DNA from: Candidatus Scalindua sp.
GTDB taxonomy: Bacteria; Planctomycetota; Brocadiia; Brocadiales; Scalinduaceae
Assembly (NCBI GenBank): GCA_031316235.1
Contig: JALDRA010000001.1
Location: 3,120,001-3,152,000 of the forward strand
DNA: 32,000 bases
Direction: 5' to 3'
Shown: positions 601-28,669 of the stretch, in pieces
How the letters are laid out: every line of letters begins with the position of its first letter
Position numbering within the stretch: position 1 is the stretch's first letter
The notes under the pieces: model-generated
What the model was told of the DNA's origin: nothing
The model's database searches: none
The model's input: only the letters and a program-made list of their open reading frames with translations
Translations under genes and position numbers: made by a program

Positions 601-714
601 TATACTAAAAACGATTTGGTTTTCGGTTTTACTGGAAACCAGATCTTGGTGAAGGTATACTCGCTCAATTTTATCTCGGATTCTATCCGAAATCCAGTAT
701 GAGATGAGTATAAT
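601..714 (+). repeat. Intergenic repeat family 1, copy A (short form, 114 nt)
   Basis: TATACTAAAAACGATTTGGTTTTCGGTTTTAC...GGTATACTCGCTCAATTTTATCTCGGATTCTATCCGAAATCCAGTATGAGATGAGTATAAT. Differs at about 6 positions from the reverse complement of 18802-18915. Confidence 0.9.
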
Positions 715-880
715 CTTAAAAACAAGGTAAAAATAGCACTTTATCCGGTTGAAATCAAGAGGAAACTGAAAGTTACGGAAGGTTTATGAAATGAGCGAAA
801 GAGACTCTCCGTCTCTCTCTCTGTTTTCGTATAAGAAATCCTGCATCCCGAATCTATGCCGAGTTCCCGGATATTTAAGC

Positions 881-1327
881 CTATCGATTCCAGTTGTTTA
901 TGTCGTCAATATCACTTCCGGAAGTTGTCGATATACCGTCCGGGCCTGGAGAATACAGGTCGTATGAACCGGTATTCTGATTTCCAGGAGAAACATATAC
1001 GAGAGGGTTACCCCAATAATCAACAATCGTATCACCGCTTACTGTATCATCATGTAATTCGATATACTGTCTTAAGGCGGTACCGGATGGTTGCAGCAGA
1101 GACTTGAGATTTGCTATATCCCCGGAAGGATAGGATCTGTTATCACTGTAATAGTGTTCAATCGCCATTTCCAGGCGATCGATCATTGTTCTGGTGGCCT
1201 TTATCTGGGTGTTTTTACTCAAACGGGGAACCACCGTCAAAACGGATGCGGTAATTACGAGGATTATGCTGATAACTACCAGAAGTTCTGTCAGGGTAAA
1301 TCCATTTTTACCAGTTTGTAATGTCAT
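881..1327 (-). CDS. gspG: Major pseudopilin, GspG/PulG-like
   Basis: MTLQTGKNG|FTLTELLVVISIILV prepilin motif. The C-terminal part matches the T2SS-G signature (YP..., DYWGNPLVYVSPGNQNTGSYDLYSPGPDGI...DDINNW). The ATG at 1327 is preferred over the GTG at 1336. Overlaps the upstream gene by 20 nt. Confidence 0.85.
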   Translation of the reverse strand: MTLQTGKNGFTLTELLVVISIILVITASVLTVVPRLSKNTQIKATRTMIDRLEMAIEHYYSDNRSYPSGDIANLKSLLQPSGTALRQYIELHDDTVSGDTIVDYWGNPLVYVSPGNQNTGSYDLYSPGPDGISTTSGSDIDDINNWNR

Positions 1328-1979
1328 CACTTGCACTGTTTCCTGAATCGTCTACCTTGTCAGGCCCGAATGAATATATATCAAACGAGGCGATATTGTG
1401 AGAAGGAGAGCTGCTTACGTATGAGTAATCACTGCCAAAAGGATCTTTATACTGGAAGACCTCTCTCGTTCCGTTGACTCCTTCTATACTGAGCGTTGCG
1501 GTATCTGAGGCAAAATCAGCACCCGATCCTTCAATCTGCGATCTCTTGAATTCTATATAGGGGCCGAATATCTCATTAAAACTCGTTGAATTGAACTTAA
1601 ACCTGCTGCCGAGAAAAAAGACAAGACATTTTGTGTCTGTATTGAGATCATCATCGCGAGGTATCTCTATACTGGCGAGAGAGATCATTGTATCTGCTGT
1701 TGTGTAGCTGTCGGGTGGAAAGAAACCAAAGTCACTCTCAAATTGCCTGAGTGCAAGCCCCAGCTGGCTTATCTGAGCAGCGGTAACGCCACTCTTTGCG
1801 TTGGTCTGGATAGAACTTACAACAGGTACGGTAATTCCAACAAGAACCATGATGATTACGAGAACAACTAACATCTCTACGAGCGTAAACCCGGTTGAAG
1901 AGTTCTTTTTTAACAGGGGGGAGGGAGGTACGGCAGGTTGTTCAGAACCCTGCGAGTCCATTAGTATCTCACTCGGCAT
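1308..1979 (-). CDS. Second GspG-like pseudopilin with an internal insertion
   Basis: Prepilin motif STG|FTLVEMLVVLVIIMVLVG lies at residue ~96 of the maximal ORF (open to 2177). The GspG-like C-terminus is FDIYSFGPDKVDDSGNSASDDITNW. The first ~66 codons of the maximal ORF are low-complexity read-through (MSMRNSMSMRGNS) of a CATACT-rich spacer, so M67 (1979) or M73 (1961) is the likelier start. Confidence 0.75.
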   Translation of the reverse strand: MPSEILMDSQGSEQPAVPPSPLLKKNSSTGFTLVEMLVVLVIIMVLVGITVPVVSSIQTNAKSGVTAAQISQLGLALRQFESDFGFFPPDSYTTADTMISLASIEIPRDDDLNTDTKCLVFFLGSRFKFNSTSFNEIFGPYIEFKRSQIEGSGADFASDTATLSIEGVNGTREVFQYKDPFGSDYSYVSSSPSHNIASFDIYSFGPDKVDDSGNSASDDITNW

Positions 1980-2263
1980 CCTGTCACTAAAGTGTATCGA
2001 ATACCTACGGAAATTTCCGGCAGAATTTTTTTCTGATGGTACAAAGTCCGTTAAACCCGCCAGAGATCCTGTTCTAAAATCTGATTTCATCACCTTTTTT
2101 TTATAAATTGCTGTAATGACGGAGAGAATTTTACTATGCGAGTTTCCCCGCATACTCATACTATTTCTCATACTCAATTTTCGACAACTCTTATCACCAT
2201 GGAACGTTCAACTCGGTTCACCCGCCATTTACTGCTTGACGGTCTTTATTCCCTTCAAAACGT

Positions 2264-3508
2264 TTAAAACGAACCCATACTGCTCATGAGTTTTATAAGA
2301 GGCATGAACAGGGCCAGGACTATCGTACCGATCGCACAGCCTATAAATGTGACCATAAGTGGTTCGAGCAGGCTTATCATAGCTGTTACTGCTGCATCAA
2401 TTTCTTTATCATAATTGTCGGCAGCCCTGGCAAGCATCATATCTAACTTGCCAGATTGTTCGCCTATTTCTATCATACTGACAAGTGTGGGCTTGCATAT
2501 CTTTGTATCCCGCAATGTCTTTGCGATTTTTTCTCCTTCACGGACTTTATTATGCATATATTCTATTGCATTTCTGAGTGCGGTATTTGCCGTAACATCT
2601 TTAACATTATTTAAAGACTGTAAAATAGGGACACCACTTGATGTCAGGGTTGAAAGAGTTCTGACAAATTTGGAAATAACAGACTTGCTTATGATAGAAC
2701 CGATAACAGGCAGTTTGAGTGTTATCCTGTCCTTTATCAGCCTGCATCTTTTCATTTTCATGATGAGCTTATATAAGACAAACAAAGCGACAGGAAATCC
2801 AAAGATTACATACCATCGGCTGATCATAAAGTCGCTCAAGCTGATAATCATCACGGTAATCCATGGAAGAGAGATGTCAAGCTCATCAAACATCTTTGAA
2901 AAACTGGGGATTATGAAAATCATAATCCCTGATATTATTGCACAGGCAACGAAAACAACAGCCAGTGGATAGGTTATCGAGCTTATTATTTTCAGCTTGA
3001 GTGCCCGGATTTTTTCCCGATAATTTGCCAGCCTGTCAAGAATTATATCAAGTGCACCCCCGATCTCTCCGGCTTTTATCGTATTTACATACAGCTTGTC
3101 GAATGCTTTCGGGTGTTTCTGCATTGCACCTGACAGATTATTGCCTTCCTGGATATCTCTTATCATGTGAGTGAGTATGGTTTTTAATAATCCTTTTTTC
3201 AGCTCAGATTCAATAATAATCAAACTTTCCACAATTGATATTCCCGCTTCCTGAAGTGTTGATAACTCTCGTGTAAAGGAATCTATTTCTTTTGGATTTA
3301 TCCTGCTTAATAAGAATGCTGTTGGGGGTTTTTTCTTTTCTTTGTTTCTGGTTCTGTTCTTGCGAAGGCCTCTGGTTTCTTTTATACTGGTGAGAAAAAA
3401 CCCCCTCTCACCAACCTTTCTGATGGCCTCTTCGTTTGAGAGTGCTTCAATCCAATCTTTAACCAGGATGCCTTTTTTGTCTATCGCTTTAAATTTGAAA
3501 GTTGGCAT
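2264..3508 (-). CDS. gspF: Type II secretion / type IV pilus platform protein GspF/PilC
   Basis: 414 aa with two T2SS-F repeats, each followed by TM helices (e.g. ...AGEIGGALDIILDRLANY... and ...IGEQSGKLDMMLARAADNY...). This is the typical size and topology. Confidence 0.9.
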   Translation of the reverse strand: MPTFKFKAIDKKGILVKDWIEALSNEEAIRKVGERGFFLTSIKETRGLRKNRTRNKEKKKPPTAFLLSRINPKEIDSFTRELSTLQEAGISIVESLIIIESELKKGLLKTILTHMIRDIQEGNNLSGAMQKHPKAFDKLYVNTIKAGEIGGALDIILDRLANYREKIRALKLKIISSITYPLAVVFVACAIISGIMIFIIPSFSKMFDELDISLPWITVMIISLSDFMISRWYVIFGFPVALFVLYKLIMKMKRCRLIKDRITLKLPVIGSIISKSVISKFVRTLSTLTSSGVPILQSLNNVKDVTANTALRNAIEYMHNKVREGEKIAKTLRDTKICKPTLVSMIEIGEQSGKLDMMLARAADNYDKEIDAAVTAMISLLEPLMVTFIGCAIGTIVLALFMPLIKLMSSMGSF

Positions 3509-3585
3509 TTTGTTGTTCGATAGAAGAAATTTTCAGTTACCAGCAGTGTCAGGAAATGGAGAGAAAACCTTATTGATCGTCTGAA

Positions 3586-3718
3586 CGAAAACCCCGCGGT
3601 TGAAGCAGGAGTGCCCGGATTCCAGGGGTGTAGATTTCGTAAACGTAACCTGCAGAGATACTTGAGGTTTCTGGAATTTTACCGCAAGGCAGCCGATTGA
3701 GGTTTGCGTTCAACCGCT
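3586..3718 (+). repeat. Intergenic repeat family 2, copy 2 (between ATPase and gspF)
   Basis: CGAAAACCCCGCGG...GATTTCGTAAACGTAAC...TACTTGAGG...CCGCAAGGCAG...GCGTTCAACCGCT is homologous by eye to 15309-15446, 28674-28805 and 1-72. The ends GCGGTTGAA (3596-3604) and TTCAACCGC (3709-3717) are a perfect 9-bp inverted repeat. Confidence 0.7.
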
Positions 3719-3725
3719 AGGTAAT

Positions 3726-5438
3726 TTAAGCTACTTCCCTCATAACCTCTTTTATTGTAGTTTGACCATTATAGATTGCATTGAGTCCGCTCTCCAGCAA
3801 AGTTTTCATACCGCTCCTTCTCGCAATTTTCCTTATTGTTTCTGTGGATGATTGTTGAATGATGTGGGAACATATCTCATCGTTAATCGTCATTATTTCA
3901 AGGATAGACAATCTGCCCTTGTAACCTGTATTGTTGCATTTACCGCAACCTTTTTCCCGATAGAACTGCTTTTTCCCTAATACCGATTCAGGGATATGAA
4001 GCTTCTTGATAATATTCCTGTCCGGCATATACTCTTCCCTGCATTCAGGGCAGAGCTTTCTCACCAGCCTCTGATTTATGACGGCCGTAAGTGAAGCGGT
4101 TATTAAATACGGTTTAACGCCCATATTGATTAATCTTGTTATCGTCGATGGTGCATCATTTGTATGTAAGGTACTTAAAACGAGATGGCCGGTAAGTGAA
4201 GCATGCATTGCAACTTCAACTGTTTCTAGATCTCTGATCTCACCCATCAGGATAATGTCCGGGTCTTGTCTCAAAATTGCTCTCAGGCTGTTGGCAAATG
4301 TAACGCCGATTTCTGAATGGATCTGTACCTGCGTGATACCATCAATGTCATATTCTACCGGATCTTCAGTCGTAATAATTTTTATTCCGGAACAGCGTAC
4401 AAAATTAAGAGCGGCATATAATGTTGTCGTTTTACCCGAGCCTGTGGGTCCTGTAACCAGGATAATACCGTATGTTTTCTTCATCAACTGTTTAATTGTG
4501 TTGAGATCCTGGTAATTTAATCCTAACTGTGTAAGATCAAGTGAAACTGAATTCTTGTCCAGTATCCGCAGGACAATACTTTCTCCATGTTTGGTAGGTA
4601 ATGTGGAGATGCGAATGTCAACATGGTGACCTCTTATTGTTACATGTGCATGGCCATCCTGAGGTACTCTCTTTTCCGCTATGTCCATGTTTCCCATCAC
4701 CTTGAGTCTTGAAACAATGCCGTTTGCAAAGTGTGGGGGGACAGGTATCTCATCAAGCAGCATACCGTCAACTCTGAAACGGACATGGAACTCATTTTCA
4801 AAGGTTTCAAAATGGATGTCGCTTGCCTTATCTGAGATTGCCTGCAAAAGTATTAAATTGACGAAACTTTTAACTGGTGCATTATCGACCAGGTCTTCAA
4901 GATCTCCAATCTCTTGAGATTCTTTGGTTTTACTCATTTTCTTTTCAGGAGTATAGTGCTCAAATGTATCCATGAGTTCTTCGATGGATTCATGTTCTCC
5001 CGGATAGTATCTATCCAGGCAGTTTGAAATCAACTCCTGCTCAGCCAGGACAGCCTTGAGATTATACTTGAGTAAGAATCTCAGGTCATCCATCTGTTCC
5101 ATATTGAGAGGTTCTTCCTGTGCTAACGAAAGGGTATACCCATCGTAAGCTATGGGAAGGACTCGATAAAGCTGCGCAATTGAAGGTGGAATCTTTTCAA
5201 TGATATCCGGTTTCAGTTCAACTCTTCTGAGGTCAACAACCTCCATGTCAAGATAATCACTTAAGGCTTCCAATATTAACTGGTGTGAGGTTACGCCGGA
5301 CTCTACTAATGTTTTCCCCAGTGACTTACCGTTAAGTTGCTGCATTTCGAGTGCTTTTTCTATCTGGATTTCATTTACCAGTCTCTTTTCCAGCAGGATC
5401 TGTCCAAATAATTTTTTTCGCACTTCCTTTATGCTCAT
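3726..5438 (-). CDS. gspE: GspE/PilB-family secretion ATPase, paralog 2 (MshEN-like N-domain with degenerate c-di-GMP motif)
   Basis: Walker A GPTGSGKTTTLYA, Asp box, Walker B ILMGEIRD, His box LVLSTLHTNDA, tetra-Cys CPEC...CGKC. The N-terminal T2SSE_N/MshEN-type fold is LFGQILLEKRLVNEIQIEKALEMQ-QLNGK-SLGKTLVESGVTSHQLILEALSDY. Confidence 0.92.
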   Translation of the reverse strand: MSIKEVRKKLFGQILLEKRLVNEIQIEKALEMQQLNGKSLGKTLVESGVTSHQLILEALSDYLDMEVVDLRRVELKPDIIEKIPPSIAQLYRVLPIAYDGYTLSLAQEEPLNMEQMDDLRFLLKYNLKAVLAEQELISNCLDRYYPGEHESIEELMDTFEHYTPEKKMSKTKESQEIGDLEDLVDNAPVKSFVNLILLQAISDKASDIHFETFENEFHVRFRVDGMLLDEIPVPPHFANGIVSRLKVMGNMDIAEKRVPQDGHAHVTIRGHHVDIRISTLPTKHGESIVLRILDKNSVSLDLTQLGLNYQDLNTIKQLMKKTYGIILVTGPTGSGKTTTLYAALNFVRCSGIKIITTEDPVEYDIDGITQVQIHSEIGVTFANSLRAILRQDPDIILMGEIRDLETVEVAMHASLTGHLVLSTLHTNDAPSTITRLINMGVKPYLITASLTAVINQRLVRKLCPECREEYMPDRNIIKKLHIPESVLGKKQFYREKGCGKCNNTGYKGRLSILEIMTINDEICSHIIQQSSTETIRKIARRSGMKTLLESGLNAIYNGQTTIKEVMREVA

Positions 5439-5447
5439 GCCTGTTCC

Positions 5448-7142
5448 TTAATCGTTTGATACTCTCTTGATCTCTTCCAGGGTTGTAATTCCGGCACGGA
5501 CCAGTCTCAATCCATCTTCCTTTAATGTTGTCATTCCTTCAGAATGAGCGATCTTTCGTAATTCGTTTGTCGGCACTTTTCTGTGAATAGCCTCCCTTAA
5601 TTCGGGAGTCAAAGACAGAAACTCAAATATCCCTACCCTTCCAAAATAACCGGTGTTGTTACAATAGTTGCATCCCTGCCCGTGAAAAGATAGTGAACCG
5701 TCAAAATCCTCTGTGGTAAACCCGAGATCATTTAAGCTCTCTTTTTCCATGTTCTGTGGGACTTTACATGAGGGGCATATGACTCTCACGAGGCGTTGAG
5801 CCAGTATTGCGTTAATGGATGCTGATAAGAGAAAGGGTTTTATTCCCATTTCAGTCAGCCGTGTTATCGCTGAAGGGGCATCATTTGTATGGAGTGTGCT
5901 TAATACAAGGTGTCCTGTTAATGATGTTGAAACGGCTATTTCTGCTGTCTCAATATCACGTATTTCACCAACAACTATCACGTTTGGGTCTTGACGGAGC
6001 ATGGAACGCAGGATTTTAGAAAAAGTCAGTCCTACCTTTTCTTTAACTTCACACTGATTAATTCCTCTCAGATCATATTCTATAGGATCTTCCACGGTAA
6101 TTATTTTATATTGTTTCGGATTGATTTCATTTATGGCCGCATAGAGCGTGGTCGTTTTTCCGCTACCGGTAGGACCGGTGATCAAAATGATACCGTTCGG
6201 CCTGCTTAATAACTCTTTTACATGGCGGTGATTATGTTCTGAAAGACCGACATTATTCAGTTGAATGAGTGAAGATGATTTATCCAATAACCTCATTGTA
6301 ATACTTTCGCCGCATGTGGAAGGTATGGTACTGACCCTGATATCAGTCTGCTTTCCTTCAACATTTACTGAGATTCTCCCATCCTGGGGTTTTCTTGTTT
6401 CGGTTATGTCCATATTTGAGAGTATCTTTATCCTGCAGACCAACGCCTCATGTACGTTTTTCGTAATAGTATGCATATCATGACATACACCATCAATCCG
6501 GAATCGTATATTAATATTAGTCGACAACGGTTCAATATGTATGTCGCTGGTTCTCGTCTTGACAGCCTCTTTAAAAATATGCATGACAAGTCTCACAATG
6601 GGTGATTCCGAATCATCCAGCCCCTCAGCACCGAAGTGGCTATTCTGGGAGGCCTTGAGCGCTAACCCCTTGAGATCATTGCAGATATCTCCTAGCATGA
6701 GTTCCGTATTCTTTTCATAGTATTTCTTTATGGCGTTCTCAATATTATCGCTCGTTGCCAGAACACACTCTATGTCATAATCAAGGATAAAACGCAGGTT
6801 TTCCTGGGTGTTAATATCAAGCGGGTCGCTTGTTGCCACAATAAGAAGCCCATTTTGTCTTGCAATAGGTATGATATTATATTGTTTTACGATATCTTTT
6901 TTAATAATGTTTATAACGTCATCGGGAATAGCGATAGCCAGAGGATCAACAACTTTATAATCAAACTGTTCCGCAAGACAATTGGTAATATGTTCAGCGT
7001 TAGCAAAGCCCATCTTTATTATCACATCACCCAATCTGGCAGACAGCATCTTCTGTTGCTCCAATGCCTTATCCAGCTGTTCCTGGGTAATAAATCCCTT
7101 TTCTTTCAGTATTTGTCCGATTGCTTTTCGTGTGGTCTTCAT
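5448..7142 (-). CDS. gspE: GspE/PilB/MshE-family secretion ATPase, paralog 1 (well-conserved MshEN c-di-GMP-binding motif; motif 2 fully canonical)
   Basis: Walker A GPTGSGKTTTLYA, VVGEIRD, LVLSTLHTNDA, CPSC...CNYC. The N-terminus is AIGQILKEKGFITQEQLDKALEQQ-KMLSA-RLGDVIIKMGFANAEHITNCLAEQ, i.e. two 24-residue RLGxx(L/I)(L/I)xxG(L/F)(L/I)xxxxLxxxLxxQ-type motifs separated by 5 residues. Confidence 0.92.
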   Translation of the reverse strand: MKTTRKAIGQILKEKGFITQEQLDKALEQQKMLSARLGDVIIKMGFANAEHITNCLAEQFDYKVVDPLAIAIPDDVINIIKKDIVKQYNIIPIARQNGLLIVATSDPLDINTQENLRFILDYDIECVLATSDNIENAIKKYYEKNTELMLGDICNDLKGLALKASQNSHFGAEGLDDSESPIVRLVMHIFKEAVKTRTSDIHIEPLSTNINIRFRIDGVCHDMHTITKNVHEALVCRIKILSNMDITETRKPQDGRISVNVEGKQTDIRVSTIPSTCGESITMRLLDKSSSLIQLNNVGLSEHNHRHVKELLSRPNGIILITGPTGSGKTTTLYAAINEINPKQYKIITVEDPIEYDLRGINQCEVKEKVGLTFSKILRSMLRQDPNVIVVGEIRDIETAEIAVSTSLTGHLVLSTLHTNDAPSAITRLTEMGIKPFLLSASINAILAQRLVRVICPSCKVPQNMEKESLNDLGFTTEDFDGSLSFHGQGCNYCNNTGYFGRVGIFEFLSLTPELREAIHRKVPTNELRKIAHSEGMTTLKEDGLRLVRAGITTLEEIKRVSND

Positions 7143-7208
7143 TTCGATACAAGTATACCCCTGGCTGCAGGATTAATCTGAAGGACATATTTGATGATTG
7201 TGCGTTGG

Positions 7209-7323
7209 TATACTAAAACCGATTTGGTTTTCGGTTTTACCGGCAACCAAATCCTGGTTGCAGTTATACTCGCTCAATTTTATCTCGGATTTTATCCGAA
7301 AACCATTGTAAGATGAGTATAAT
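7209..7323 (+). repeat. Intergenic repeat family 1, copy B (short form)
   Basis: TATACTAAAACCGATTTGGTTTTCGGTTTTACCGGCAACCAAATCCTGGTTGCAGTTATACTCGCTCAATTTTATCTCGGATTTTATCCGAAAACCATTGTAAGATGAGTATAAT. Lies 66 nt upstream of the first ATPase gene (opposite strand). Confidence 0.9.
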
Positions 7324-7571
7324 ACAGAATTAACCTCTCTTTCCACCTCTCTCAATGGTACAGGAGACGTTCCTTTATTATTCTGGAGAAGAGAAGAGTC
7401 GTTATGAGTTCAAAAGATTTCAACGAATGGATCCGCCTGCAATCCCTGTTTTGTGTTCCCGGGTGAATATTTTTCTCTCCAGAAGTACTATCGGCTGATC
7501 TGCAGGTTTTTTATACATATAATTTTTCTTGGTGACATGAATGGGAACGGCAAAAGATAACCAAAATATTC

Positions 7572-7712
7572 AATTACCCTCATATCATGATGGTTTTTCG
7601 GAAAAAATCCGGGGAAAAACGGAGAGAGTAAAGTCCTCGGCGCCTGGTTTGTCCGGGGATACCTGCAATCAGGCGGTTAGAAAAATCTAAAAGCAAATCG
7701 GTTTTAGTATAC
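7572..7712 (-). repeat. Intergenic repeat family 1, copy G (long form, inverted relative to copy B)
   Basis: The reverse complement reads GTATACTAAAACCGATTTGCTTTT...GGTATCCCCGGACAAACCAGGCGCCGAGGACTTTACTCTCTCCGTTTTTCCCCGGATTTTTTCCGAAAAACC...GAGGGTAATT. Its outer 19 nt are identical to the outer 19 nt of copy B. Confidence 0.85.
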
Positions 7713-7991
7713 TTGATTTCCCGGTCTCGGGAGGAGATGAGTCTATACCGGTGCAGGATAAAAGGTTCAAGGGTAAGGTCTCAGAAAAAACAGCCCGGTA
7801 TTCACTCCTGTCCCCGCCGGAAATATTGTCTCCCGCCCGGAAGAATCAGTTCGGCAGCCACCATCCGCCGGCCGCTCGGCCCGATCTGATCTTCCAGACC
7901 TGGTAAAAGCAATTTGCAGGGAATAGAGAAGCGGGAATCTAGAGTTTTGTCCATTTCTCTGTTTCGAGGTAATTCGAATGACAATCGGGAA

Positions 7992-8909: not shown

Positions 8910-9142
8910 CGGCATCTCCCTTTTTTTATAACGTATGCTGTTCCCCAATTTTGAAAAAAATATCTCTCTCGTGTTAAAATTATGCCTTTCGATTGCAGCC
9001 ACTTATTCACGGTTACCATCCCTTCCCGATAATGAACCTGTGGAGGACGGAAACACACATCAGTGAGGCAGCAAATATTTTGTTCCTGCTTCAGGATACC
9101 TACCCTTTAAAATGATACTGACCGGACTGCTGTAAGCAGAAA

Positions 9143-9781: not shown

Positions 9782-10168
9782 AATTTATGTCTGCTCCTTT
9801 TTCAAATCCTTCATGCAGCTGTTAGAATCCATTATTCAGAATCCAGAATAGAAGTTGAGCATGGTTCATGTATGAGTTGGCTCAAGTAGCTTACTTATCT
9901 CTTCAAGTTGTACATACTACCTTTCCTCCCGAACGTAGCAGTTCCAGCCCCCGTCCGAACAGATTCATCCGGGCGGTGCGGGCGGGTAGTATTTTGCTTT
10001 AACGCAGAGGCGCGGAGGACGCAGAGCTTATGCCGCAAAGCTTATATCAAGCTGCGACTGAAAGGAAATTTACTCTAATTTGCTGACTACCCGGCAAATC
10101 GCATCGCATAATAAATAATGTTTTCAATTCATAATTCTGAAATCCAAAATCTCAATTCTTCATATTAT

Positions 10169-12094
10169 TTACATCCCATTTGCTGCTAAAACCTTATTTA
10201 GGTCATTTGTTTTCAGTGAAGGTGTACCGGCAATGACCTGGCCTAAAATATCCAGTGACAATGGAGAATTAAGAACAAGGATATCCTTATACTCTCTGGA
10301 TGTCATGAGTGTAGCATTGTTTATCATAGTATCAAGAACTTCATCTGATAATGGACTATTGTTTTGCATGGTCCACTCAAAGGACATCATTATTGTACCT
10401 TCATTTATTGCTGCAATAAGTACATTGTCAGACAATGGGTTATTACTCGCTAAGTTTAAGATATTTTCATTGTCACCGGAAGACAATGAAGGATTTCGGT
10501 TTATCATTGCGATCAGTACGGCATCTGATAGCGGCGATTCGCTAACAAGATAATTTGCAACATCAGATGAACTATTTGCCGGGTTATTGATGAAGTCTAT
10601 TAGTGCCTGATCATTAGAGTCAGGGGTAGCAGAACTACAGTCATCATCAATTCCATTGCCGGGTATCTCGGCTATACTGGGGTTGACAGCTGGATTGGCA
10701 TCATCACAGTCACCCTGGTTCCCGGTAAATCCGTCACCGTCATTGTCTATATCGAGAAGACTGTCTGGGGTTGCAGAGCTGCAGTCATCATCGATTCCGT
10801 TACCGGGTATCTCGGCTATACTGGGGTTGACGGCTGGATTGGCATCATCACAGTCACCCTGGTTCCCGGTAAATCCGTCACCGTCATTGTCTATATCGAG
10901 AAGACTGTCTGGGGTTGCAGAGCTGCAGTCATCATCGATTCCGTTGCCGGGTATCTCGGCTATACTGGGGTTGACGGCTGGATTGGCATCATCGCAGTCA
11001 CCCTGGATCTCGGTAAATCCATCACCGTCATCATCTGTATTGAGAAGGCTGTCTGGAGTGGCCGGGTTACAGTCATCATCTTTCCCGTTATCAGGTATCT
11101 CTGCCATAGCGGGGTTGACGGCCGGGTTGCCGTCATCGCAGTCACCCTGGTTTCCCGTAAACCCGTCACCATCATTGTCTTCACCCTCATCAGGATCCTC
11201 TATGGTGGCAGTCGTTCTGCCGTCAATGGACAACTCCAGCGCTGCGCCGTTATTTCTGTCCAGGACATCAACCGTTCCCGTTATCAGGGTGACGGTAGTG
11301 GCCCTGTTTGCATTAACCGTCCCGACCGTAAACCGGGTGCCCCGTACCCCGATAATGGCACTCGGTGTTACCACCTCGAATTTAGAGCCTGCCGTAACCT
11401 GGATATCGATTGTCCCCTCGTCTTCAACCCGTATGATGCTGTAGAGTGTCCCGTCTGCCAGCCGAACCGACTGGACGAGGTATGTCCCGTATCCCGACTG
11501 GGAGTCGGTGATGGTCACCCTGCTTCCGTCTGAGAAGACCATTTCATCATTTATGCTGCCTATGGTTCTCTCGGCAGAGGTACCGTCGGGCGGTATCTCC
11601 TGGCCGTTAACGAGTACGGTATCGATATTGGTGATATTGGTTGCACCTGCACCGAAGAGATTTGTGGCTTTTTTCGCCTCCCTGTGGTGGGGACATCCGA
11701 TGATGAGTTTGTCAACATCGTAGGGGTCCTTTCGTGCCACATAATAGGGGTCATAGCTTGCAAAGCTGGCGGTGCTGACCGGGTTGTCGTCTTCGGGGCA
11801 GAAAAAGGTCTTTTTTTCCGGCACATAGCGGGCAAGTTCGGCAGAGAGGGGGAGGGTATCATTGGAGTCATCCGGGTAGCCGTCCTTCGGGAATTTTCCG
11901 TGTTCGTTATAGTAGATCTGCATACCCAGGGAAATCTGTCTCAGGTTGCTCATGCATGCAGTCTGGTGAAATGCAGTGCGTTCCTTGAGGATGGCAACCG
12001 TTGCAATGCCGGCCACTATCGCTACGATGGTCATCGTGATCATGATTTCGATGAGCGAGAACCCTTTTTTAGCGCCGGAGAATATGTTTTTCAT
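10169..12094 (-). CDS. Giant chimeric pseudopilin: prepilin/DUF1559-like N-terminus + FecR-like domain + 4 Asp/Cys-rich repeats + C-terminal PLSDxVL repeats
   Basis: MKNIFSGAKKG|FSLIEIMITMTIVAIVAG prepilin motif. CMSNLRQISLGMQIYYNEHGKFP and FFCPEDD resemble planctomycete DUF1559 pseudopilins. VVTPSAIIGVRGTRFTVGT is FecR-like. There are 4 copies of D(N/D)DGDGFTxxQGDCDDxNPAVNPxxAEIPxNGxDDDCxxATPDS and 4 copies of (S/N)xPLSDxVLxxxIN. Confidence 0.85.
   Translation of the reverse strand: MKNIFSGAKKGFSLIEIMITMTIVAIVAGIATVAILKERTAFHQTACMSNLRQISLGMQIYYNEHGKFPKDGYPDDSNDTLPLSAELARYVPEKKTFFCPEDDNPVSTASFASYDPYYVARKDPYDVDKLIIGCPHHREAKKATNLFGAGATNITNIDTVLVNGQEIPPDGTSAERTIGSINDEMVFSDGSRVTITDSQSGYGTYLVQSVRLADGTLYSIIRVEDEGTIDIQVTAGSKFEVVTPSAIIGVRGTRFTVGTVNANRATTVTLITGTVDVLDRNNGAALELSIDGRTTATIEDPDEGEDNDGDGFTGNQGDCDDGNPAVNPAMAEIPDNGKDDDCNPATPDSLLNTDDDGDGFTEIQGDCDDANPAVNPSIAEIPGNGIDDDCSSATPDSLLDIDNDGDGFTGNQGDCDDANPAVNPSIAEIPGNGIDDDCSSATPDSLLDIDNDGDGFTGNQGDCDDANPAVNPSIAEIPGNGIDDDCSSATPDSNDQALIDFINNPANSSSDVANYLVSESPLSDAVLIAMINRNPSLSSGDNENILNLASNNPLSDNVLIAAINEGTIMMSFEWTMQNNSPLSDEVLDTMINNATLMTSREYKDILVLNSPLSLDILGQVIAGTPSLKTNDLNKVLAANGM
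10616..11179 (-). repeat. Tandem 144-bp coding repeat (4 copies) inside the giant pseudopilin gene
   Basis: The CCGGGTATCTCGG anchor recurs at 10659, 10803 and 10947 (and a diverged CAGGTATCTC at ~11092), a period of exactly 144 bp. Copies 10659-10802 and 10803-10946 differ at only 2 positions by my reading. Confidence 0.95.
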
Positions 12095-12696
12095 TATGAT
12101 AACTCACGTTACTATCCCTTGTTTTGAGAAGTACGATTTGAGATTTATTTTGATGTTTTTAATGAAGCAGTAAATAAAGAAATCAACTCATCTGCTTCTT
12201 TAATCAGATCAATTCATATCTTTTTAATACCAGAATCGTAAATAATAATTTTCAGATCTTTGATCATGAAGTAGAGAAATAAAAAAGCAAGAATCGTGCC
12301 TTTTAGAAATAAAACCCGCTACCAGTGGTCGTATTCCAGATCTCCGGGGTAACATATCGATGGGAGGCCGCCATATAAAGAGGACCGGTTACAGCTAACT
12401 CTTTACTGAATAAGGACGCTCTCGCCGGATCATCCACTACCCTGCAGAATTTTTGTAAACCTCCCATTATCGGTGTAAAAGGGGGAGCAATTACGTTTTT
12501 TATCAAAAAGCATTTATTTGCCCGGATTTGTATAATATTTCAACGATTATCTTGACCGCTACAGGGAGTATTAAATGGTTAATTCTGCTTGAGGGGAAGA
12601 ACAAACGGAAAATAACCCAGAAGACCCTATTTTTTTGCAGGTTCAGCCGATAATGCTACGTATACTCATCTTGTGCCGCACTTCCCGCTTGAAGAG

Positions 12697-13323
12697 ATGA
12701 ATAGAAAAAAAAGTAAAGGAAAAAGTATTATCAATCAGACAACCCAGTTATTAACGGCTTTATTCTTCTTCCTTGGAGTAGCAGTTACTCCCGTCCATGC
12801 AGAAAACCTGATAGATGAGGGTTTTGAGTCAGGGTGGGGTGGATGGAGTGCTGATTGCGGAGTCTGGGAGATAGGTCTGCCCAGATCAGGGCCCGGATAC
12901 AGCCACGATGGTTCTCTGTGTGCCGGTACGGCCCTCGATGGAAACTATCCTAATAATACAGACAGCCGATTAATCAGTCCGGCAATCACTCTTCCATCTG
13001 TTGCGGATCACGAAGAAATCTATCTCGAATTCTGGCACTGGTTTTCTTATCTTAATAACCCGTTTTCTGATGATAAGGGGTATGTGCAGATAAAAGTCTA
13101 CTATAGTGAAACGGGGAAGTGGTCAGACTGGACAACTCTTGGGAGTACAATAAAGAATACCTCCTCAGTCTGGACATTGAGAAAAGAGGATCTTACGAGA
13201 TATTCCGGGAAAAAGATACAGATAGCCTTTTATCATAGAGTTGATGATGTGTATACATCAACCGGCTGGTATATTGACAATATTGAGATTTCCGGGCCGG
13301 GTGCCTCTTCCCCTGCTTTCTGA
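12697..13323 (+). CDS. Small secreted protein with MAM/'choice-of-anchor J'-like beta-sandwich domain
   Basis: Signal peptide MNRKKSKGKSIINQTTQLLTALFFFLGVAVTPVHA|ENL. The domain pattern EGFESGWGGWS...W..G.P..GP...DGNYPNNTDSRLISP.ITLP...LEFWHWF...GYVQIKV...W...IQIAFY...TGWYIDNIEISG is typical of that family. The ORF is open from the GTG at 12673 but the ATG at 12697 is preferred. Confidence 0.7.
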   Translation: MNRKKSKGKSIINQTTQLLTALFFFLGVAVTPVHAENLIDEGFESGWGGWSADCGVWEIGLPRSGPGYSHDGSLCAGTALDGNYPNNTDSRLISPAITLPSVADHEEIYLEFWHWFSYLNNPFSDDKGYVQIKVYYSETGKWSDWTTLGSTIKNTSSVWTLRKEDLTRYSGKKIQIAFYHRVDDVYTSTGWYIDNIEISGPGASSPAF

Positions 13324-13465
13324 TATGCGAAAACCGATCTGGTTTTATCTGTTTCTAAAAGCCAAAGCCTGGTTAAAGGTATCCCCGGACAAAAAGCGCC
13401 GAGGACTTTCCCCGGTTCGTTTTTTCTCGGATTGTATCCGAAATCCAGTATGAGATGAGTATAAA
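13324..13465 (+). repeat. Intergenic repeat family 1, copy C (long form)
   Basis: ATATGCGAAAACCGATCTGGTTTTATCTG...GGTATCCCCGGACAAAAAGCGCCGAGGACTTTCCCCGGTTCGTTTTTTCTCGGATTGTATCCGAAATCCAGTATGAGATGAGTATAAA. Starts on the base after the TGA stop of the 12697-13323 gene. Confidence 0.9.
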
Positions 13466-13523
13466 CACCGTATGGGATGGAGGGGAGGAACACGGGAGAT
13501 TTATCGAGTTTTCCGGGTAAATC

Positions 13524-15278: not shown

Positions 15279-15308
15279 TCTTTAAATTTCCTTATCTAGT
15301 GCCTGATC

Positions 15309-15446
15309 GGAAACCCTGTGGTAGAACAAAAACTCCACGGATTCAAGGCGCGCTGATCTCGTAAACGGAACGTATCGATGTGCGTGAGTATTACGTCACT
15401 CTTACTGCAGCAGAGCAGAGGGGTAGTTTTTGTCTGGTCACCAGCC
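15309..15446 (+). repeat. Intergenic repeat family 2, copy 4
   Basis: GGAAACCCTGTGGTAGAACAAAAACTCC...GCTGATCTCGTAAACGGAACGTATCGATGTGCGTGAGTATTACGT...GCAGCAGAGCAGAGGGGTAGTTTTTGTCTGGTCACCAGCC is collinear by eye with 28674-28805, 3586-3718 and 1-72. Confidence 0.7.
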
Positions 15447-15554
15447 AGGTTAACCGTTTGATCACAAATTACTTCCCGGGTTCTTTGAATACTCACAATA
15501 AGATTGCATGTCTGACTGCCCGTTCTCATGCAACAGGATTGTTCCACATGATAG

Positions 15555-15722
15555 ATATACGAAAACCGATCTGGTTTTATCTGTCTCTAAAAACAAAAGC
15601 CTGGTTACTGGTATCCCCGGACAAAAAACACCGACGACTTTCCCCGGACCAGGTGCCGAGGACTTTACTCGCTCCGTTTTTTCCCGGATTGTATCCGAAA
15701 TTCAGTATAAGATGAGTAGAGT
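15555..15722 (+). repeat. Intergenic repeat family 1, copy D (long form with two internal cassettes, degenerate 3' end)
   Basis: ATATACGAAAACCGATCTGGTTTTATCTG...GGTAT[CCCCGGACAAAAAACACCGACGACTTT][CCCCGGACCAGGTGCCGAGGACTTT]ACTCGCTCCGTTTTTTCCCGGATTGTATCCGAAATTCAGTATAAGATGAGTAGAGT. Confidence 0.88.
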
Positions 15723-15813
15723 AGAGAGGTATCCATCTTGAAGAAATAACAAAGAGACGGGTTACCATCTGTCAGGTGTACTAGTGAACAGCAATAGGTA
15801 TGCCCATTTTGCA

Positions 15814-15927
15814 TATACTGCAACCAAATCTTGGCTGCTGGTATCCCCTGACAGAAAACTCCGAGGACTTTACCCGCTCAATTTTTTCCCGGATTGTATC
15901 CGAAATCCAGTATGAGATGAGTATAAT
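15814..15927 (+). repeat. Intergenic repeat family 1, copy E (lacks the 5' hairpin module, has one cassette)
   Basis: TATACTGCAACCAAATCTTGGCTGCTGGTAT[CCCCTGACAGAAAACTCCGAGGACTTT]ACCCGCTCAATTTTTTCCCGGATTGTATCCGAAATCCAGTATGAGATGAGTATAAT. Confidence 0.88.
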
Positions 15928-16205
15928 TGACTGCTTAACGGGATGGGGAGGGTGATTCACCATTGATGCAGTGAGTGAGCGGGACAATTTTTCACTCTCC
16001 TGTTTTTTTTTAATAATTTTCATGCATGAATTTGTATAATTTTACAACGATGGTGTTTAAATTTTCGGTAAGAGCGGTGATTGAGTTCCCGTCTTATCAG
16101 GTGACATACTGGTACGGAAGGAAATCTCCTGTCATGAGATGGGGAGCTCTCAATGGAAACTTACCCTGCTGGATGATCGTACGGTGAGCGCGCAGATTTT
16201 TGAAG

Positions 16206-16232
16206 AAAAATATCTCTCTTCTTCGAAGAGAT
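16206..16232 (-). terminator. Candidate intrinsic terminator downstream of the HD-GYP gene
   Basis: On the minus strand: TCTCTTC-GAA-GAAGAGA (7-bp stem, 16215-16221/16225-16231), then GATATTTTT. Lies 26 nt after the stop at 16258-16260. Confidence 0.45.
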
Positions 16233-16257
16233 GCAGGTATGATTTCCCGGGAAGAAC

Positions 16258-18726
16258 CTACACCTTTATGGGAATGGCTGTTTCTGATTTGTCATGCGGC
16301 TCTATTATACGGTTTTCAGGGCATTGATTAATAGAGGTGAGGAAAATTGCTGCAAGTTTCGGATCAAACTGGGTCCCTGCACCCCTTTCAATTTCCTGGC
16401 AGGCTATTTCCATCGAGAGTCCCTTTCTATAAACCCTGTCTGATGTCATTGCGTCATAGGCATCGGCAATTGAGATGATCCTTGCTATCAGATGGATATC
16501 ATCCCCCTTTAAACCATCAGGATACCCCTTGCCATCATACCGTTCATGGTGGTTGCGTACACCGGGCATCAGGACACTTAATCGGGACATCGGTTCCAGA
16601 ATTTTGCTCCCCTTCAGGGGGTGTGATTGTATTATTTCAAATTCTTTCGCTGATAGACGGCCCGGTTTATTTAAAATATCACCACTGATTCCAATTTTTC
16701 CAATATCATGAATAGTGGAAGAGAGCTCTATAAATTCCAGTTCTCCCGGTGTCAGACCCAGCTCCCTTCCAATCCCGACACTGTATCCGGCCACCCGCTT
16801 CGAATGTCCATGGGTATAGGAGTCTCTTGCATCAAGGGCTGTCGAAATTGATTTGATATAATCAAGGAAGATGGAGTGAATACTGTTATTGAGCTGATGA
16901 TTTTCGATTGCGATGGCAATCTGATGAGTGAATGAAGAGAGTACTCTCAGTTCTTCAGAGGTAAATTTTGACAAGGGTGAAAATGCTGAAGTTGGCTTGT
17001 TGCAGAGGAAAAGGGTCCCTATGATCTGTCTTCTCAAAAATATTGGGACACAGAATACACTCCGTATAGCTGTCTGTAGCAGTGACAAATCGGGATGAAT
17101 AGAGAGATCATCAATCCAGACAGGCTTTTCATCGGAGAGAATCCAGGTATTTACCACGTCTGCTATTCTGTCTAATTCTTCTCTGGTTCCATGAAGAGCT
17201 GTTGCGGTAGAGTGTTTAAAACATTGTGTATCTCCATCCAGGGTATAGAGTGCGACCATTTCACAGCGGGTTGTTTTTTTTATAGGATCTAAAAAACCTG
17301 ATGGCAGTGTTGATGAAACGGTGAGCGCAGAAGTGATCCTGACATCTTCCTGAAAGCGTTGTAAAGAATACTCATCAGGTTCATGGGTAGATGTCGTGAT
17401 CTCTCCGACCTCAAGAAGCATGTTTAATTCAAGTTCTCTCATGGCCGATTCTTTGTTGGCAACACTGAGATTGACAGCCAGACAGGCACCGGTATTCATC
17501 AAAAGCATTGTTACGAACGGCATCATTTCAATCATTAAATTTGCTTTTTGAAATAAGAACAGACTGGTAAATGCAACAATTCCTGAGAGTAAAAACAGGA
17601 ACAAAAGACCGCCTGCAAGGAGAGAATAGGTACTGCCCCGTATGCGTATCCTGAAAATGAGTATGCTCAGGAGTATTGATACACCCACGATGATGGATAT
17701 AATGGTGTAAGACTGAGGTACCCGGATGAAATTTTCCGTCAACAGGTTGTAAAGGATGTTTGCATGCAGGAATATTCCGAATTTACGTTCAAAGGGTGTA
17801 ACATGAATGTCCTGTTCCGCACCTGGTGAGGTAATACCAAAGAGAACAATTTTGTCTTTGAAGTGGTCGGCGGGGAGCCTGTTTTCATTTTGTAACGATA
17901 CGTCTGAAAATGAGTATAAGGTGATAGGTTTCTCTTTTCCTATCTTATCCAGCCATTGAACGCTGTTTTGCTGGTATAAATTAATGTATTTTTCAAAATC
18001 TATATAATTAATCGGCAAACAACTATTTTTGTCAAGGGGTATCGTTAATTCACCTATTCTGAAATGATTTCCATGATATGACTGGATTTCAGGTTCAATC
18101 CCCTTTGATTCGAGAAATGCGGAAAGGGCGAAAGGGAGAAAACGTTTCCTGCCGTCTGCACTCGATATTTGAAGGGGTATCCTTCTTGCAACTCCGTCAC
18201 TATCATAAAATACGTTTAAGTGGCCTGTTCTTTTTGTCGAGTCGGAGAGTAATTTTATATTTTCAATTATTTTTCCCTTGTAAATGCCATTTTCAGGCCT
18301 TGTTCTGAAAAGATTAACCGTTGGACTCCATATAGGGAAGATAGTCATATCAGCGTTAATGGCAGCTTCTGATAAAGCGGTATCGTTCTCTGGATTTTCA
18401 CTATCCTGGAGGTCGAAAAACATATCAAAGGCAATAACACTGGCGCCGCCTTTTTTTAAATAGTCTACCAATTCTGCATAACGGCTTCTTGGCCAGGGCA
18501 GATGGCCGAACAGTTGCATATCTTCATCCGTAATGCCAATTACTGCTATTTTTGGCACATCGAGTCTCTTTTTGACGCTATTATTTCTGAGACGCCAGTC
18601 GTACAAGATTTTTTCCGGCTTATCAAAGATTCCGGTAAAGGATAACAAGGATATGATTGCCGTGACCGTTAACCCCCACAGGAAACCATGGAAGTTTTGT
18701 TTTATAAAAGGCTTAACATTAAGCAT
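16258..18726 (-). CDS. CHASE2-sensor c-di-GMP phosphodiesterase (CHASE2-TM-GAF-HD-GYP)
   Basis: CHASE2 region (FGHLPWPRSRYAELVDYL...VIAFDMFF...HLNVFYDSDGVARRIPL), a block of TM helices, a GAF-like middle domain, and a C-terminal HD-GYP (HGHSKRV...HDIGKIG...HHERYDGKGYPDGL). Confidence 0.88.
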   Translation of the reverse strand: MLNVKPFIKQNFHGFLWGLTVTAIISLLSFTGIFDKPEKILYDWRLRNNSVKKRLDVPKIAVIGITDEDMQLFGHLPWPRSRYAELVDYLKKGGASVIAFDMFFDLQDSENPENDTALSEAAINADMTIFPIWSPTVNLFRTRPENGIYKGKIIENIKLLSDSTKRTGHLNVFYDSDGVARRIPLQISSADGRKRFLPFALSAFLESKGIEPEIQSYHGNHFRIGELTIPLDKNSCLPINYIDFEKYINLYQQNSVQWLDKIGKEKPITLYSFSDVSLQNENRLPADHFKDKIVLFGITSPGAEQDIHVTPFERKFGIFLHANILYNLLTENFIRVPQSYTIISIIVGVSILLSILIFRIRIRGSTYSLLAGGLLFLFLLSGIVAFTSLFLFQKANLMIEMMPFVTMLLMNTGACLAVNLSVANKESAMRELELNMLLEVGEITTSTHEPDEYSLQRFQEDVRITSALTVSSTLPSGFLDPIKKTTRCEMVALYTLDGDTQCFKHSTATALHGTREELDRIADVVNTWILSDEKPVWIDDLSIHPDLSLLQTAIRSVFCVPIFLRRQIIGTLFLCNKPTSAFSPLSKFTSEELRVLSSFTHQIAIAIENHQLNNSIHSIFLDYIKSISTALDARDSYTHGHSKRVAGYSVGIGRELGLTPGELEFIELSSTIHDIGKIGISGDILNKPGRLSAKEFEIIQSHPLKGSKILEPMSRLSVLMPGVRNHHERYDGKGYPDGLKGDDIHLIARIISIADAYDAMTSDRVYRKGLSMEIACQEIERGAGTQFDPKLAAIFLTSINQCPENRIIEPHDKSETAIPIKV

Positions 18727-18801
18727 GGCATTGCATCTGATTCATTATTTCAGTTCAAAAAATGATGCACAGAAAAACTCTGATGAGAGCAAATGGTAGT
18801 A

Positions 18802-18915
18802 ATTATACTCATCTCATACTGGATTTCGGATAAAATCCGAGTTAAAATTGAGCGAGTATACCTTCACCAAGATTTTGTTTCCGGTAAAACCGAAAACCAA
18901 ATCGGTTTTAGTATA
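18802..18915 (-). repeat. Intergenic repeat family 1, copy F (short form, inverted)
   Basis: The reverse complement is TATACTAAAACCGATTTGGTTTTCGGTTTTACCGGAAACAAAATCTTGGTGAAGGTATACTCGCTCAATTTTAACTCGGATTTTATCCGAAATCCAGTATGAGATGAGTATAAT, about 6 mismatches from copy A. The TATAAT end lies 76 nt upstream of the HD-GYP gene start. Confidence 0.9.
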
Positions 18916-25324: not shown

Positions 25325-25373
25325 TTTTCGTTCCTCCACTGAGTTTCTGTTAAAGCACTTGTTCGTTAGACAA

Positions 25374-28646: not shown

Positions 28647-28669
28647 CGGCACATTGATACTATGTGCCG
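28647..28669 (+). terminator. Hairpin just after the cdaR stop (possible terminator, no U-tract)
   Basis: CGGCACAT-TGATACT-ATGTGCCG, an 8-bp perfect stem 6 nt after the stop. It is followed by GTAAGG rather than a T-run. Confidence 0.3.

Follow-up and report, generated by a model that had tools for sequence, protein, structure and literature searches.

Duplication of a TA target dinucleotide is a trait of insertion sequences (ISs) of the IS630 family. The closest described relative, in kind, of the element analyzed here is RUP of Streptococcus pneumoniae, which measures ~107 bp, is present in ~108 intergenic copies and has TA both at its termini and as its target (PMC2229807; PMC3049150). RUP has stops in all frames, forms a stable stem-loop and carries terminal inverted repeats (TIRs) like those of the resident IS630-Spn1, its proposed mobilizer in trans (PMC2229807; PMC3049150). 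The BOX elements of streptococci (boxA-boxBn-boxC) combine a 5' and a 3' module that are fixed with short central modules in varying number, and their length varies at orthologous sites (PMC3049150). The Correia or NEMIS elements of Neisseria are 100-155 bp long, have termini that start with TATA(G), duplicate TA and contain a stable hairpin (PMC2229807). Here we analyze a repeat, hereafter called family 1, which occurs in seven intergenic copies within a stretch of 32,000 nt from Candidatus Scalindua sp. (contig JALDRA010000001.1, positions 3,120,001 to 3,152,000; hereafter the window). We conclude that family 1 is, very probably, a non-autonomous miniature inverted-repeat transposable element (MITE) of the IS630/Tc1-mariner type, specific to Candidatus Scalindua-type anammox bacteria.

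The repeat is short (112-223 nt), non-coding, dispersed and multi-copy (139 complete copies in our sample), with TIRs that have precise and conserved boundaries. These TIRs resemble those of an autonomous IS630-family element of the same genomes, less so for the left end of the IS, and the presence of copies is polymorphic between related genomes (sites B, C, D and E/F, see below). No description of Scalindua MITEs or of the family-1 repeat was found in the searchable literature, and we regard it as a MITE of conventional kind that had not been described before, nearest to RUP of pneumococci and modular in the manner of BOX; the general picture of MITEs is unchanged by these findings.

Boundaries and Architecture of the Repeat

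Sequence conservation among 71 copies taken with their flanks rises from ~30% to >90% exactly at TATACT and drops exactly after GAGTATA, thereby delimiting a core of 113 nt, TATACTAAAACCGATTTGGTTTTCGGTTTTACCGGAAACCAAATCTTGGT(TGCAGT/GAAGG)TATACTCGCTCAATTTTATCTCGGATTTTATCCGAAAACCATTATGAGATGAGTATA. The TIRs are ~26 bp long and read TATACT-N10-TGGTTTTCGG at both ends. A first-pass annotation of the window, made from the sequence alone, had reported a terminal inverted repeat of 6-8 bp; the first 6 bp are indeed perfect, but the repeat continues imperfectly to ~26 bp. The same annotation ended the element with TATAAT, which the conservation profile corrects: the element stops at ...GAGTATA, and the final AT is flank. 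Every repeat copy is of the form TA|TAC...GTA|TA. The DNA on either side is rich in A and T; position -1 is A in 41 of 63 copies, but no further upstream motif is fixed, and the flanks show neither a duplication beyond the terminal TA nor any identity to each other past this dinucleotide.

On either strand the core is predicted to fold into two adjacent hairpin domains that meet at an internal TATACT (-41 and -37 kcal/mol on the two strands, z = -7.4 and -5.6). Domain 1 of the predicted fold is a long palindrome, GATTTGGTTTTCGG / CCGGAAACCAAATC, and domain 2 a stem, ACTCGCTCA / TGAGATGAGT, which encloses the CGGAT/ATCCG hairpin.

Complete copies fall into five length classes of ~112-113, 136-143, 162-169, 191-196 and 219-223 nt. 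A central module of 27 nt, CCCCGGACAAAAGGCGCCGAGGACTTT, is absent from 66 of the 139 copies, single in 71 and double in two, and GC-rich palindromic inserts of +27, +30, +55 and +85 nt are present in the loop of hairpin 1 and, now and then, in the 3' hairpin. Since such palindromes are found also outside repeat copies, they constitute a separate small element nested in the repeat. Two families of them, CCTGTCTGCGTGCATCGCACAGGCAGG and CCCGTCCGAACGGCTGACAGGCCGGGCGGG, lie in hairpin loops of the MITE and form a layer of tiny elements resembling repetitive extragenic palindromic (REP) sequences. Inside repeat copies, the 27-nt type is seen for example at loci L023, L044, L050, L069 and L083 and the 30-nt type at L009, L020, L030 and L072; palindromes outside copies lie at L069 5481-5507, L086 1673-1700, L112 3401-3430 and L116 588-617.

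Distribution in Scalindua Genomes

A strict pattern for the 3' module, scanned over one genome per species, matched at least 116 stretches, all from metagenome-assembled genomes (MAGs) of Candidatus Scalindua/Scalinduaceae plus one MAG labelled 'uncultured Planctomycetota'; SCAELEC01, RBC_AMX3, CBDCUS and OFTM1 are among the genomes in the matches listed. No match to the repeat was obtained on viral contigs. A detailed sample of 0.93 Mb of loci from at least four genomes yielded 204 matches to a hidden Markov model (HMM) of family 1 and, when both termini were required, 139 distinct complete copies, of which SCAELEC01 contributes at least 70, RBC_AMX3 at least 55 and CBDCUS seven. According to a crude gene caller that called 74% of the DNA coding, 108 copies are intergenic versus nine within crude open reading frames (ORFs). 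There is no orientation bias relative to co-directional neighbors (27 copies in the same and 33 in the opposite direction), and gene starts are faced by the 3' end 55 times and by the 5' end 61 times.

Family 1 is thus genome-wide and not a property of the island in which it was first noticed. The first-pass annotation had described the copies as confined to the intergenic gaps of this accessory island, which is true within the window, and had thought of either a MITE/REP-like colonizer of the island or small RNAs or protein-binding sites tied to pilus and cyclic di-GMP (c-di-GMP) genes. The first idea was right in kind, as to the MITE, and wrong in range, because copies are spread over whole Scalindua genomes. 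The pattern within the window itself fits the density of intergenic DNA, which amounts to 4,560 nt in 1-19.4 kb versus only 503 nt in 19.4-31.2 kb. From the local density ~0.8 copies would be expected in the latter part, in agreement with the observed absence; in the left 19 kb the copies make up 891 of the 4,560 intergenic nucleotides (~20%).

The second idea, namely that the repeats are dedicated cis-regulatory sites or small RNAs of the pilus (type II secretion system (T2SS)/type IV pilus-like) and c-di-GMP genes, could draw on the position of all seven window copies between pilus/T2SS, GGDEF, PilZ and HD-GYP genes, and on the hexamer TATAAT that four of the seven form at the junction with their flank. 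It is refuted by the genome-wide distribution and we consider it extremely unlikely. Elsewhere the repeat has housekeeping and metabolic genes without relation to these as neighbors: of 20 flanking genes drawn at random, one encodes a PilZ protein, and the others include those for ATP synthase B, G6PD, ArgJ, DprA, UDP-glucose dehydrogenase, cytochromes and a DEAD helicase. Orthologous islands lack these copies or carry copies in other positions or orientations, and the local excess is explained by the 4.6 versus 0.5 kb of intergenic DNA. Two observations had been named beforehand as speaking against a dedicated role, a match to an IS end and a spread through the genome without link to these genes, and both have now been made.

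Nor do searches for regulatory signals favor this interpretation. A scan against Rfam, which the first-pass annotation had recommended, gave no match at the gathering threshold in the window and nothing overlapping the copies at E<=1 in L051 and L069. A sigma-70-type promoter scan of the window called the junction TATAAT in no copy and returned two weak 9/12 matches in or next to copies A and B, which is background level. Terminator-like sites number 19 versus 17.9 expected, one of which overlaps a copy (D). An outward promoter, with the 3' TATAAT as -10 element and the CGGAT/ATCCG palindrome as activator site near -40, was considered and rejected because the AT is flank (only 9 of 63 copies are directly followed by these two bases), no acceptable -35 element is present, the scan makes no call and there is no orientation bias. 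We therefore find no evidence for a strand-specific RNA or a promoter role.

An IS630-Family Element as Candidate Parent

At one locus of AMX11 (L117), a gene for an IS630-type transposase is followed, directly after its stop codon, by a repeat copy, and the sequence that separates the two, CCTAAAACCATTTCGTAATGAGTATA, resembles the 3' end of the repeat itself. In full length, the transposase (P0079, 343 aa) reaches 211.9 bits against the NCBIfam IS630 equivalog, for which the cutoff is 100, and the candidate parent consists of a single DDE_3 transposase with N-terminal helix-turn-helix domains, flanked by short TIRs. CBDCUS contains five copies of this IS, 1,122 bp long, which have unrelated flanks, encode identical 343-aa transposases and are identical in DNA at all but one position; their ends are TATACCGGTCGCG... 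and ...AATGAGTATA, i.e. TATAC...GAGTATA. The IS630-family IS is present also in AMX11 and in SCAELEC01 (at two contig ends), and a homologue (P0137) is annotated on the window's own contig. A related IS of 1,160 bp, with 67% amino-acid identity and four copies, has the same TATAC...GTATA ends, which are therefore a trait of this IS630 subgroup.

Compared in register, the transposase-distal end of the IS (CCTAAAACCATTTCGTAATGAGTATA, or TATACTCATTACGAAATGGTTTTAGG when read inward) matches the 3' end of the MITE, CCGAAAACCATTA(T/C)GAGATGAGTATA, at 21-22 of 26 positions. With the 5' end of the MITE, this IS end shares 19 of 26 positions by manual in-register count and 22 of the first 30 as computed, and both have TGGTTTT.GG at positions 17-26. 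Background 26-mers ending in TATA typically give 9-10 matches, with a maximum of 18; a binomial estimate puts the probability of 17-18 matches at the 22 non-TATA positions, with ~0.3 per position, at ~1e-5. The left end of the AMX11 IS starts with TATACTAA, like the MITE, and thereafter has 16 of 25 matches to it (manual count). The first-pass annotation could not match the repeat to any IS end or Rfam family; Rfam indeed gives no match, but the termini match the end of an IS630-family IS. The MITE is not an internal-deletion derivative of the IS, since there is no similarity between the two past the terminal 26 nt.

Further termini of the form CCTAAAACCA(A/T)TTCGTGATGGGTATA, intermediate between the IS end and the MITE end, are found outside family-1 copies at L008 (-), L027 (-), L036 6701 (+), L068 (-), L079, L097, L102 and L105. 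They probably represent sibling non-autonomous families of the same IS630 subgroup.

On the basis of these comparisons we propose that the MITE would be mobilized in trans by the transposase of this IS or of a close relative, for instance the homologue in the window genome. The DDE transposase of the resident 1.1-kb IS would recognize the MITE termini, which would be copies of the transposase-distal end of the IS, excise the MITE and insert it at a TA in AT-rich DNA, with duplication of the TA. Insertions would survive only in intergenic DNA, so that copies would accumulate in loci with long intergenic gaps, such as the pilus/c-di-GMP region of the window. The element would have no dedicated host function, and its effects on neighboring genes would be incidental, arising from hairpins in co-transcribed mRNA or from a chance -10-like TATAAT at the junction.

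These termini bear also on a different assignment, that of a REP element or bacterial interspersed mosaic element (BIME) moved by a REP-associated tyrosine transposase (RAYT, a Y1 transposase), or of a palindrome-associated transposable element (PATE) of the IS200/IS605 type moved as single-stranded hairpins. Hairpins near both ends, intergenic location, high copy number and the targeting by an IS110-family element, as for REPs elsewhere, would agree with such an origin. Yet the repeat is a unit of 113-223 nt with TIRs and invariant TA flanks, not a palindrome of 20-40 nt with a 5' GTAG-type head, and its ends match an IS630 (DDE) element, while IS200/IS605 elements have neither TIRs nor TA...TA flanks. 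Moreover, among the genes annotated in the fetched loci no Y1 transposase lies beside any copy and no RAYT is flanked by repeats, although this search was not exhaustive and did not cover whole genomes. We deem such an origin very unlikely in comparison with IS630-type mobilization.

TA Duplication by the IS, Turnover, and Probable Recent Activity

The whole IS copy of AMX11 at locus L126 sits inside a repeat copy and has TA on both sides. Its junctions read ...ccgcaacTATAC[TA]{TACTAATCGCG...AATGAGTA}[TA]AAACCGATTTGG..., or in short form ...TATAC[TA]{TACTAATCG...AATGAGTA}[TA]AAACCG..., and removal of the IS plus one TA restores a perfect 113-nt repeat. Target duplication of TA is thereby proven for the IS, and the same junction defines the element proper as TAC...GTA. 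Among junctions at which two elements abut, two share a single TA, so that the TA is target and not element; two others have two TAs and are neutral in this respect. For the MITE itself we infer a TA duplication from the universal TA...TA flanks, the behavior of the IS and the two shared-TA junctions.

Orthologous loci at ~80-85% identity were compared from RBC_AMX3 (L069), AMX11 (L117), CBDCUS (L119) and an ENA contig (L120). For site B, no repeat was detected in the corresponding gap of L120, and site C is reduced there to a relic of ~20 nt of the 3' terminus. In the gap of copy D, RBC_AMX3 has a copy on the other strand (L069 2393-2560), and the same is true of the gaps corresponding to E and F. 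L120 has an orthologue of copy G in the same orientation and between the same flanks, whereas no repeat was detected at this site in AMX11 and CBDCUS. The L120 copy G has the 27-nt module and a GC-rich loop insert, both of which are missing from copy G of the window; hence modules change in situ. An apparent empty site for copy F in L069 was rejected, as its flanks are separated by ~38 nt of unrelated or relic sequence.

Regarding recent activity, the DNA of the IS is 94.4% identical between CBDCUS (L121) and AMX11 (L126), while host genes are ~83-84.5% identical (L119 versus L117), which suggests that Scalindua species have exchanged the IS horizontally. Consensus sequences of the repeat from individual genomes agree at 92-100% of positions. 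Copies A, D, F and G have in common a 3' variant peculiar to the window genome, in which AAATCCAGTA replaces AAAACCATTA and the end reads ...AAATCCAGTATGAGATGAGTA. This points to recent amplification within lineages, probably combined with exchange between Scalindua species. The IS630 element and the MITE form an active or recently active pair, more alike between Scalindua species than their genes, and as such mark plastic genomes and, possibly, horizontal exchange in anammox bacteria. Given that occupancy and module number vary between species, the copies could also serve in strain typing.

Conservation, Structure, and the Strength of the MITE Assignment

Several observations weigh against the assignment as an IS630-mobilized MITE. 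The whole 113 nt, not the TIRs alone, are ~94% conserved across species, which drift of selfish DNA alone does not predict; recent bursts, horizontal spread or gene conversion are needed in addition. Joined-flank BLAST over all loci retrieved no clean empty site for a MITE copy, and alignments of sites B, C, D, E/F and G with L069, L117, L119 and L120 gave only rearranged gaps or relics, because at ~84% identity the gaps have been rearranged by several kinds of small repeats. As to the parent, the left end of the IS fits the MITE 5' end only moderately, so that a different member of the same IS630 subgroup could be the true mobilizer. A free local alignment of MITE and IS recovers the terminal 26-mer only, with a score of 27 that is 2.6 sd above shuffles (shuffle maximum 31); the case for their relationship is built on the end-anchored register rather than on overall similarity.

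The full-length conservation raises in particular the question of whether the MITE has been exapted, i.e. whether its hairpin domains are kept by selection for a host function such as an RNA stability or processing signal, or a site for a nucleoid or regulatory protein. Roles in RNA stability or processing have been proposed for REP, ERIC and BOX. Compatible with such a function are the ~94% conservation against ~84% gene identity across genomes and the very stable predicted folds (-41 kcal/mol; z = -7.4 and -5.6), yet hairpins are expected anyway in an element built of inverted repeats, and recent amplification plus horizontal spread explain the conservation equally well, the IS itself being 94.4% identical. 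The retention of the orthologous copy G in two species and the location of several window copies 57-78 nt upstream of start codons have to be set against the free loss, degradation or replacement of copies between species and against the lack of bias in transcription orientation (27:33) or end preference (55:61); a strand-specific RNA function would predict a bias.

Covariation, a check that had been recommended for the repeat, gave a divided answer. For the 38 copies of the short class, which align cleanly at 94% identity, pairing in the hairpins amounts to 92.5%, and covariation does not exceed that of shuffles. A modest signal appeared in the model-fitted alignment of 139 copies, where double changes occur in 23 pairs versus 8.6 in shuffled alignments and 8-12 with slid partners; they lie mostly in hairpin 1 and are few per pair, in an alignment that leans to structure and in a helix confounded by module insertions. 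The CGGAT/ATCCG hairpin is almost invariant, hence uninformative. The positive covariation signal comes from the model-fitted alignment only, and taking all these points together we judge it improbable that selection for a host function, in this case an orientation-independent one, maintains the element. The MITE assignment implies that copies should no longer be mistaken for riboswitches, small RNAs or operon-specific regulatory sites in the annotation of Scalindua genomes.

Copies in the Window

The existence of the seven copies, all in intergenic DNA, is borne out by alignment, by a repeat finder that recovers all of them, by the 38-nt 3' module, which has four occurrences at <=3 mismatches while shuffles expect 0.00, and by a covariance model. 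Run with filters off over the whole window, the latter detected no eighth copy, its output in the 19-32 kb half being noise (E>=0.68). As had been noted, the copies share no reading frame: their lengths of 112, 113, 137, 140 and 165 nt are mutually out of register and every forward frame is interrupted by stops in most copies. The loop base of the CGGAT/ATCCG hairpin varies between C, T and G, again as described earlier.

Copy A (601..712, +; 124 bits with the covariance model) is a 112-nt short form that consists of the core only, with flanks ...gatatga|TATACT...GAGTATA|atctta; it lies 57 nt upstream of the start of a gene for a GspH-like pseudopilin (71-544, -). Copy B (7209..7321, +; 128.7 bits), a 113-nt short form 67 nt upstream of the gene for a GspE-like ATPase (5448-7142, -), can serve as reference for the architecture: the 5' TIR spans 7209-7234, the hairpin-1 palindrome 7221-7253, the internal TATACT where the two domains join ~7266-7271, the outer stem of domain 2 7268-7276 / 7309-7318, the CGGAT/ATCCG hairpin 7285-7299 and the 3' TIR 7296-7321. 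Copy C (7575..7711, -) is a 137-nt form with one central module and is degenerate, having GAGGGTA at its 3' end and, as previously seen at 7572-7712, a stem shortened to CGGA/TCCG.

Copy D (13324..13463, +; HMM E=7e-45), of 140 nt and with one central module at ~13383-13409, begins directly after the TGA stop of gene 12673-13323. Copy E (15556..15720, +) is a 165-nt form with two tandem central modules (~15615-15641 and ~15642-15666) and produces two overlapping HMM matches, the signature of a duplicated module. Copy F (15814..15925, +) is not truncated at its 5' side; it has both termini and one central module, and its 112 nt result from an internal deletion of 28 nt in the left arm of hairpin 1. 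Copy G (18804..18915, -; 128.1 bits), another 112-nt short form, lies 78 nt upstream of the CHASE2-GAF-HD-GYP gene (16258-18726, -) and is 95% identical to copy A. These two are the nearly identical pair in opposite orientation that the first-pass annotation called A and F, and the repeat finder returns them, at 601 and 18802, as 95% complementary across 116 nt.

Between copies B and C lies a 190-nt non-coding segment (7386-7575) that is 79% conserved in L120, where no repeat copy was detected. It may be the actual promoter or leader of the GspE operon or, alternatively, a small RNA; a 20-aa ORF within it (7405-7467) is excluded as a conserved protein by frameshifting indels.

Other Mobile DNA and Neighboring Features

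The repeat itself is the target of another element. In RBC_AMX3, family-1 copies are split at two loci (L051 4511-6203 and L083 3246-4935) by an IS110-family element of ~1.7 kb, the insertion point of which is fixed within the 27-nt module (...CCCCGGACAAA^AGGCGCCGAGG..., reading CCCCGGACAAA^AGGCGCC). The two IS110 copies are 99.5% identical and have frameshifted or fragmented transposase ORFs, and two ORF fragments of L051 match the NCBIfam 'IS110 family RNA-guided transposase' with 96 and 71 bits. This insert was considered as autonomous parent of the repeat and rejected: an IS110 element at a fixed point of the module is a parasite of the repeat. REPs are similarly targeted, by IS621 or ISPa11, and the site-specific insertion into a MITE module offers a natural target for the study of IS110 target choice.

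One could go further and see in family 1 a nested system of three tiers, in which selection acts on the domains, other mobile DNA uses the element as a hub, copies exchange modules in situ through gene conversion and the structured core matters to the host; this appears doubtful to us. Equally doubtful is the corresponding view of the insertion sites, by which the 27-nt module would be a presumably bridge-RNA-programmed landing site of IS110, and the hairpin loops landing sites for GC-rich palindromes.

Scalindua genomes carry several high-copy small repeat families. At L061 (~1090-1440), another abundant repeat of ~120 nt, which also matches dozens of other SCAELEC01 loci, lies on both sides of the MITE copy L061 1207-1321. 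The window has a second, unrelated repeat family of ~144 nt with 65-75% identity, represented at 1-72, 3577-3625, 15299-15442, 25303-25340 and 28664-28805. An ORF of 83 aa overlapping the copy at 15299-15442 has no Pfam hit, and this region is absent from the orthologous gap in L069; the corresponding gaps of L120, L119 and L117 contain small four-helix-bundle genes of the '23S_rRNA_IVP / bAvd' type. The second-family repeats may be relics of this multi-copy gene family.

Three further features were recorded. In AMX11 (L117 4368-8844) an IS66-family transposase gene interrupts the orthologue of the CHASE2-GAF-HD-GYP gene and separates its CHASE2 part from its HD part. Four tandem 144-nt coding repeats occupy 10475-11180 of the window within an ORF (10169-12094, -) for a pseudopilin-like protein of 641 aa, the orthologues of which are annotated with Cu-binding MopE-like (PF11617) repeats in numbers that vary between species. 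Finally, a perfect palindrome of 25+25 nt without spacer, TCCCGCCGGGACCGTACAAACAACC / GGTTGTTTGTACGGTCCCGGCGGGA, is found at 28517-28566, near the 3' end of ORF 27640-28641 and just upstream of the second-family copy at 28664-28805.

Comparison with Described Elements

REP and BIME sequences are abundant intergenic palindromic repeats and targets of IS110-family elements. Family 1 differs from them in its unit of at least 112 nt, its TIRs, its TA|TAC...GTA|TA ends and its mostly solitary copies, which do not form regular alternating arrays. The presence of TIRs, TA on both flanks and the lack of a fixed upstream motif distinguish it also from PATEs derived from IS200/IS605, while integron attC sites or Vibrio cholerae repeats (VCR) are set apart by the mixed orientations (five plus and two minus in the window), the genome-wide location and a consensus without the GTTRRRY core.

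The Correia elements have near-perfect TIRs of ~24-26 bp and a site for IHF, whereas the Scalindua TIRs are imperfect. Correia junctions with the flank can create -10-like hexamers; for the Scalindua element no promoter signal was detected. We know of no parent IS established for Correia, in contrast to the candidate parent presented here. From the IS630-family IS itself the MITE differs in that it encodes nothing and shares only ~26 terminal nucleotides.

The likeness to BOX lies in the modularity, with a 27-nt module present 0-2 times and a copy (G) that differs in modules between two species. The central modules are unrelated in sequence and in size (27 nt versus ~45 nt for boxB), and, unlike BOX, further length classes of the Scalindua element come from nested GC-rich palindromes, not from module repeats. 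In BOX, for its part, the TIRs bear little resemblance to those of an IS, and a clear TA rule is lacking.

With RUP, finally, the Scalindua element agrees in the properties described at the outset, its own TA target and mobilization in trans being putative, and like RUP it shares the TIRs alone with an IS. The two have no sequence relationship and their hosts belong to different phyla, that of the present element being Planctomycetota. Unlike RUP, moreover, the Scalindua element is modular, has five length classes and appears to copy the same, transposase-distal, IS end at both of its termini. It also differs from RUP in that a copy of the IS has been caught within a copy of the MITE, giving direct evidence of TA duplication by the IS. 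With a MITE, its candidate parent IS and an IS-in-MITE junction that proves this duplication, the Scalindua pair is a cleaner case than most bacterial MITEs.

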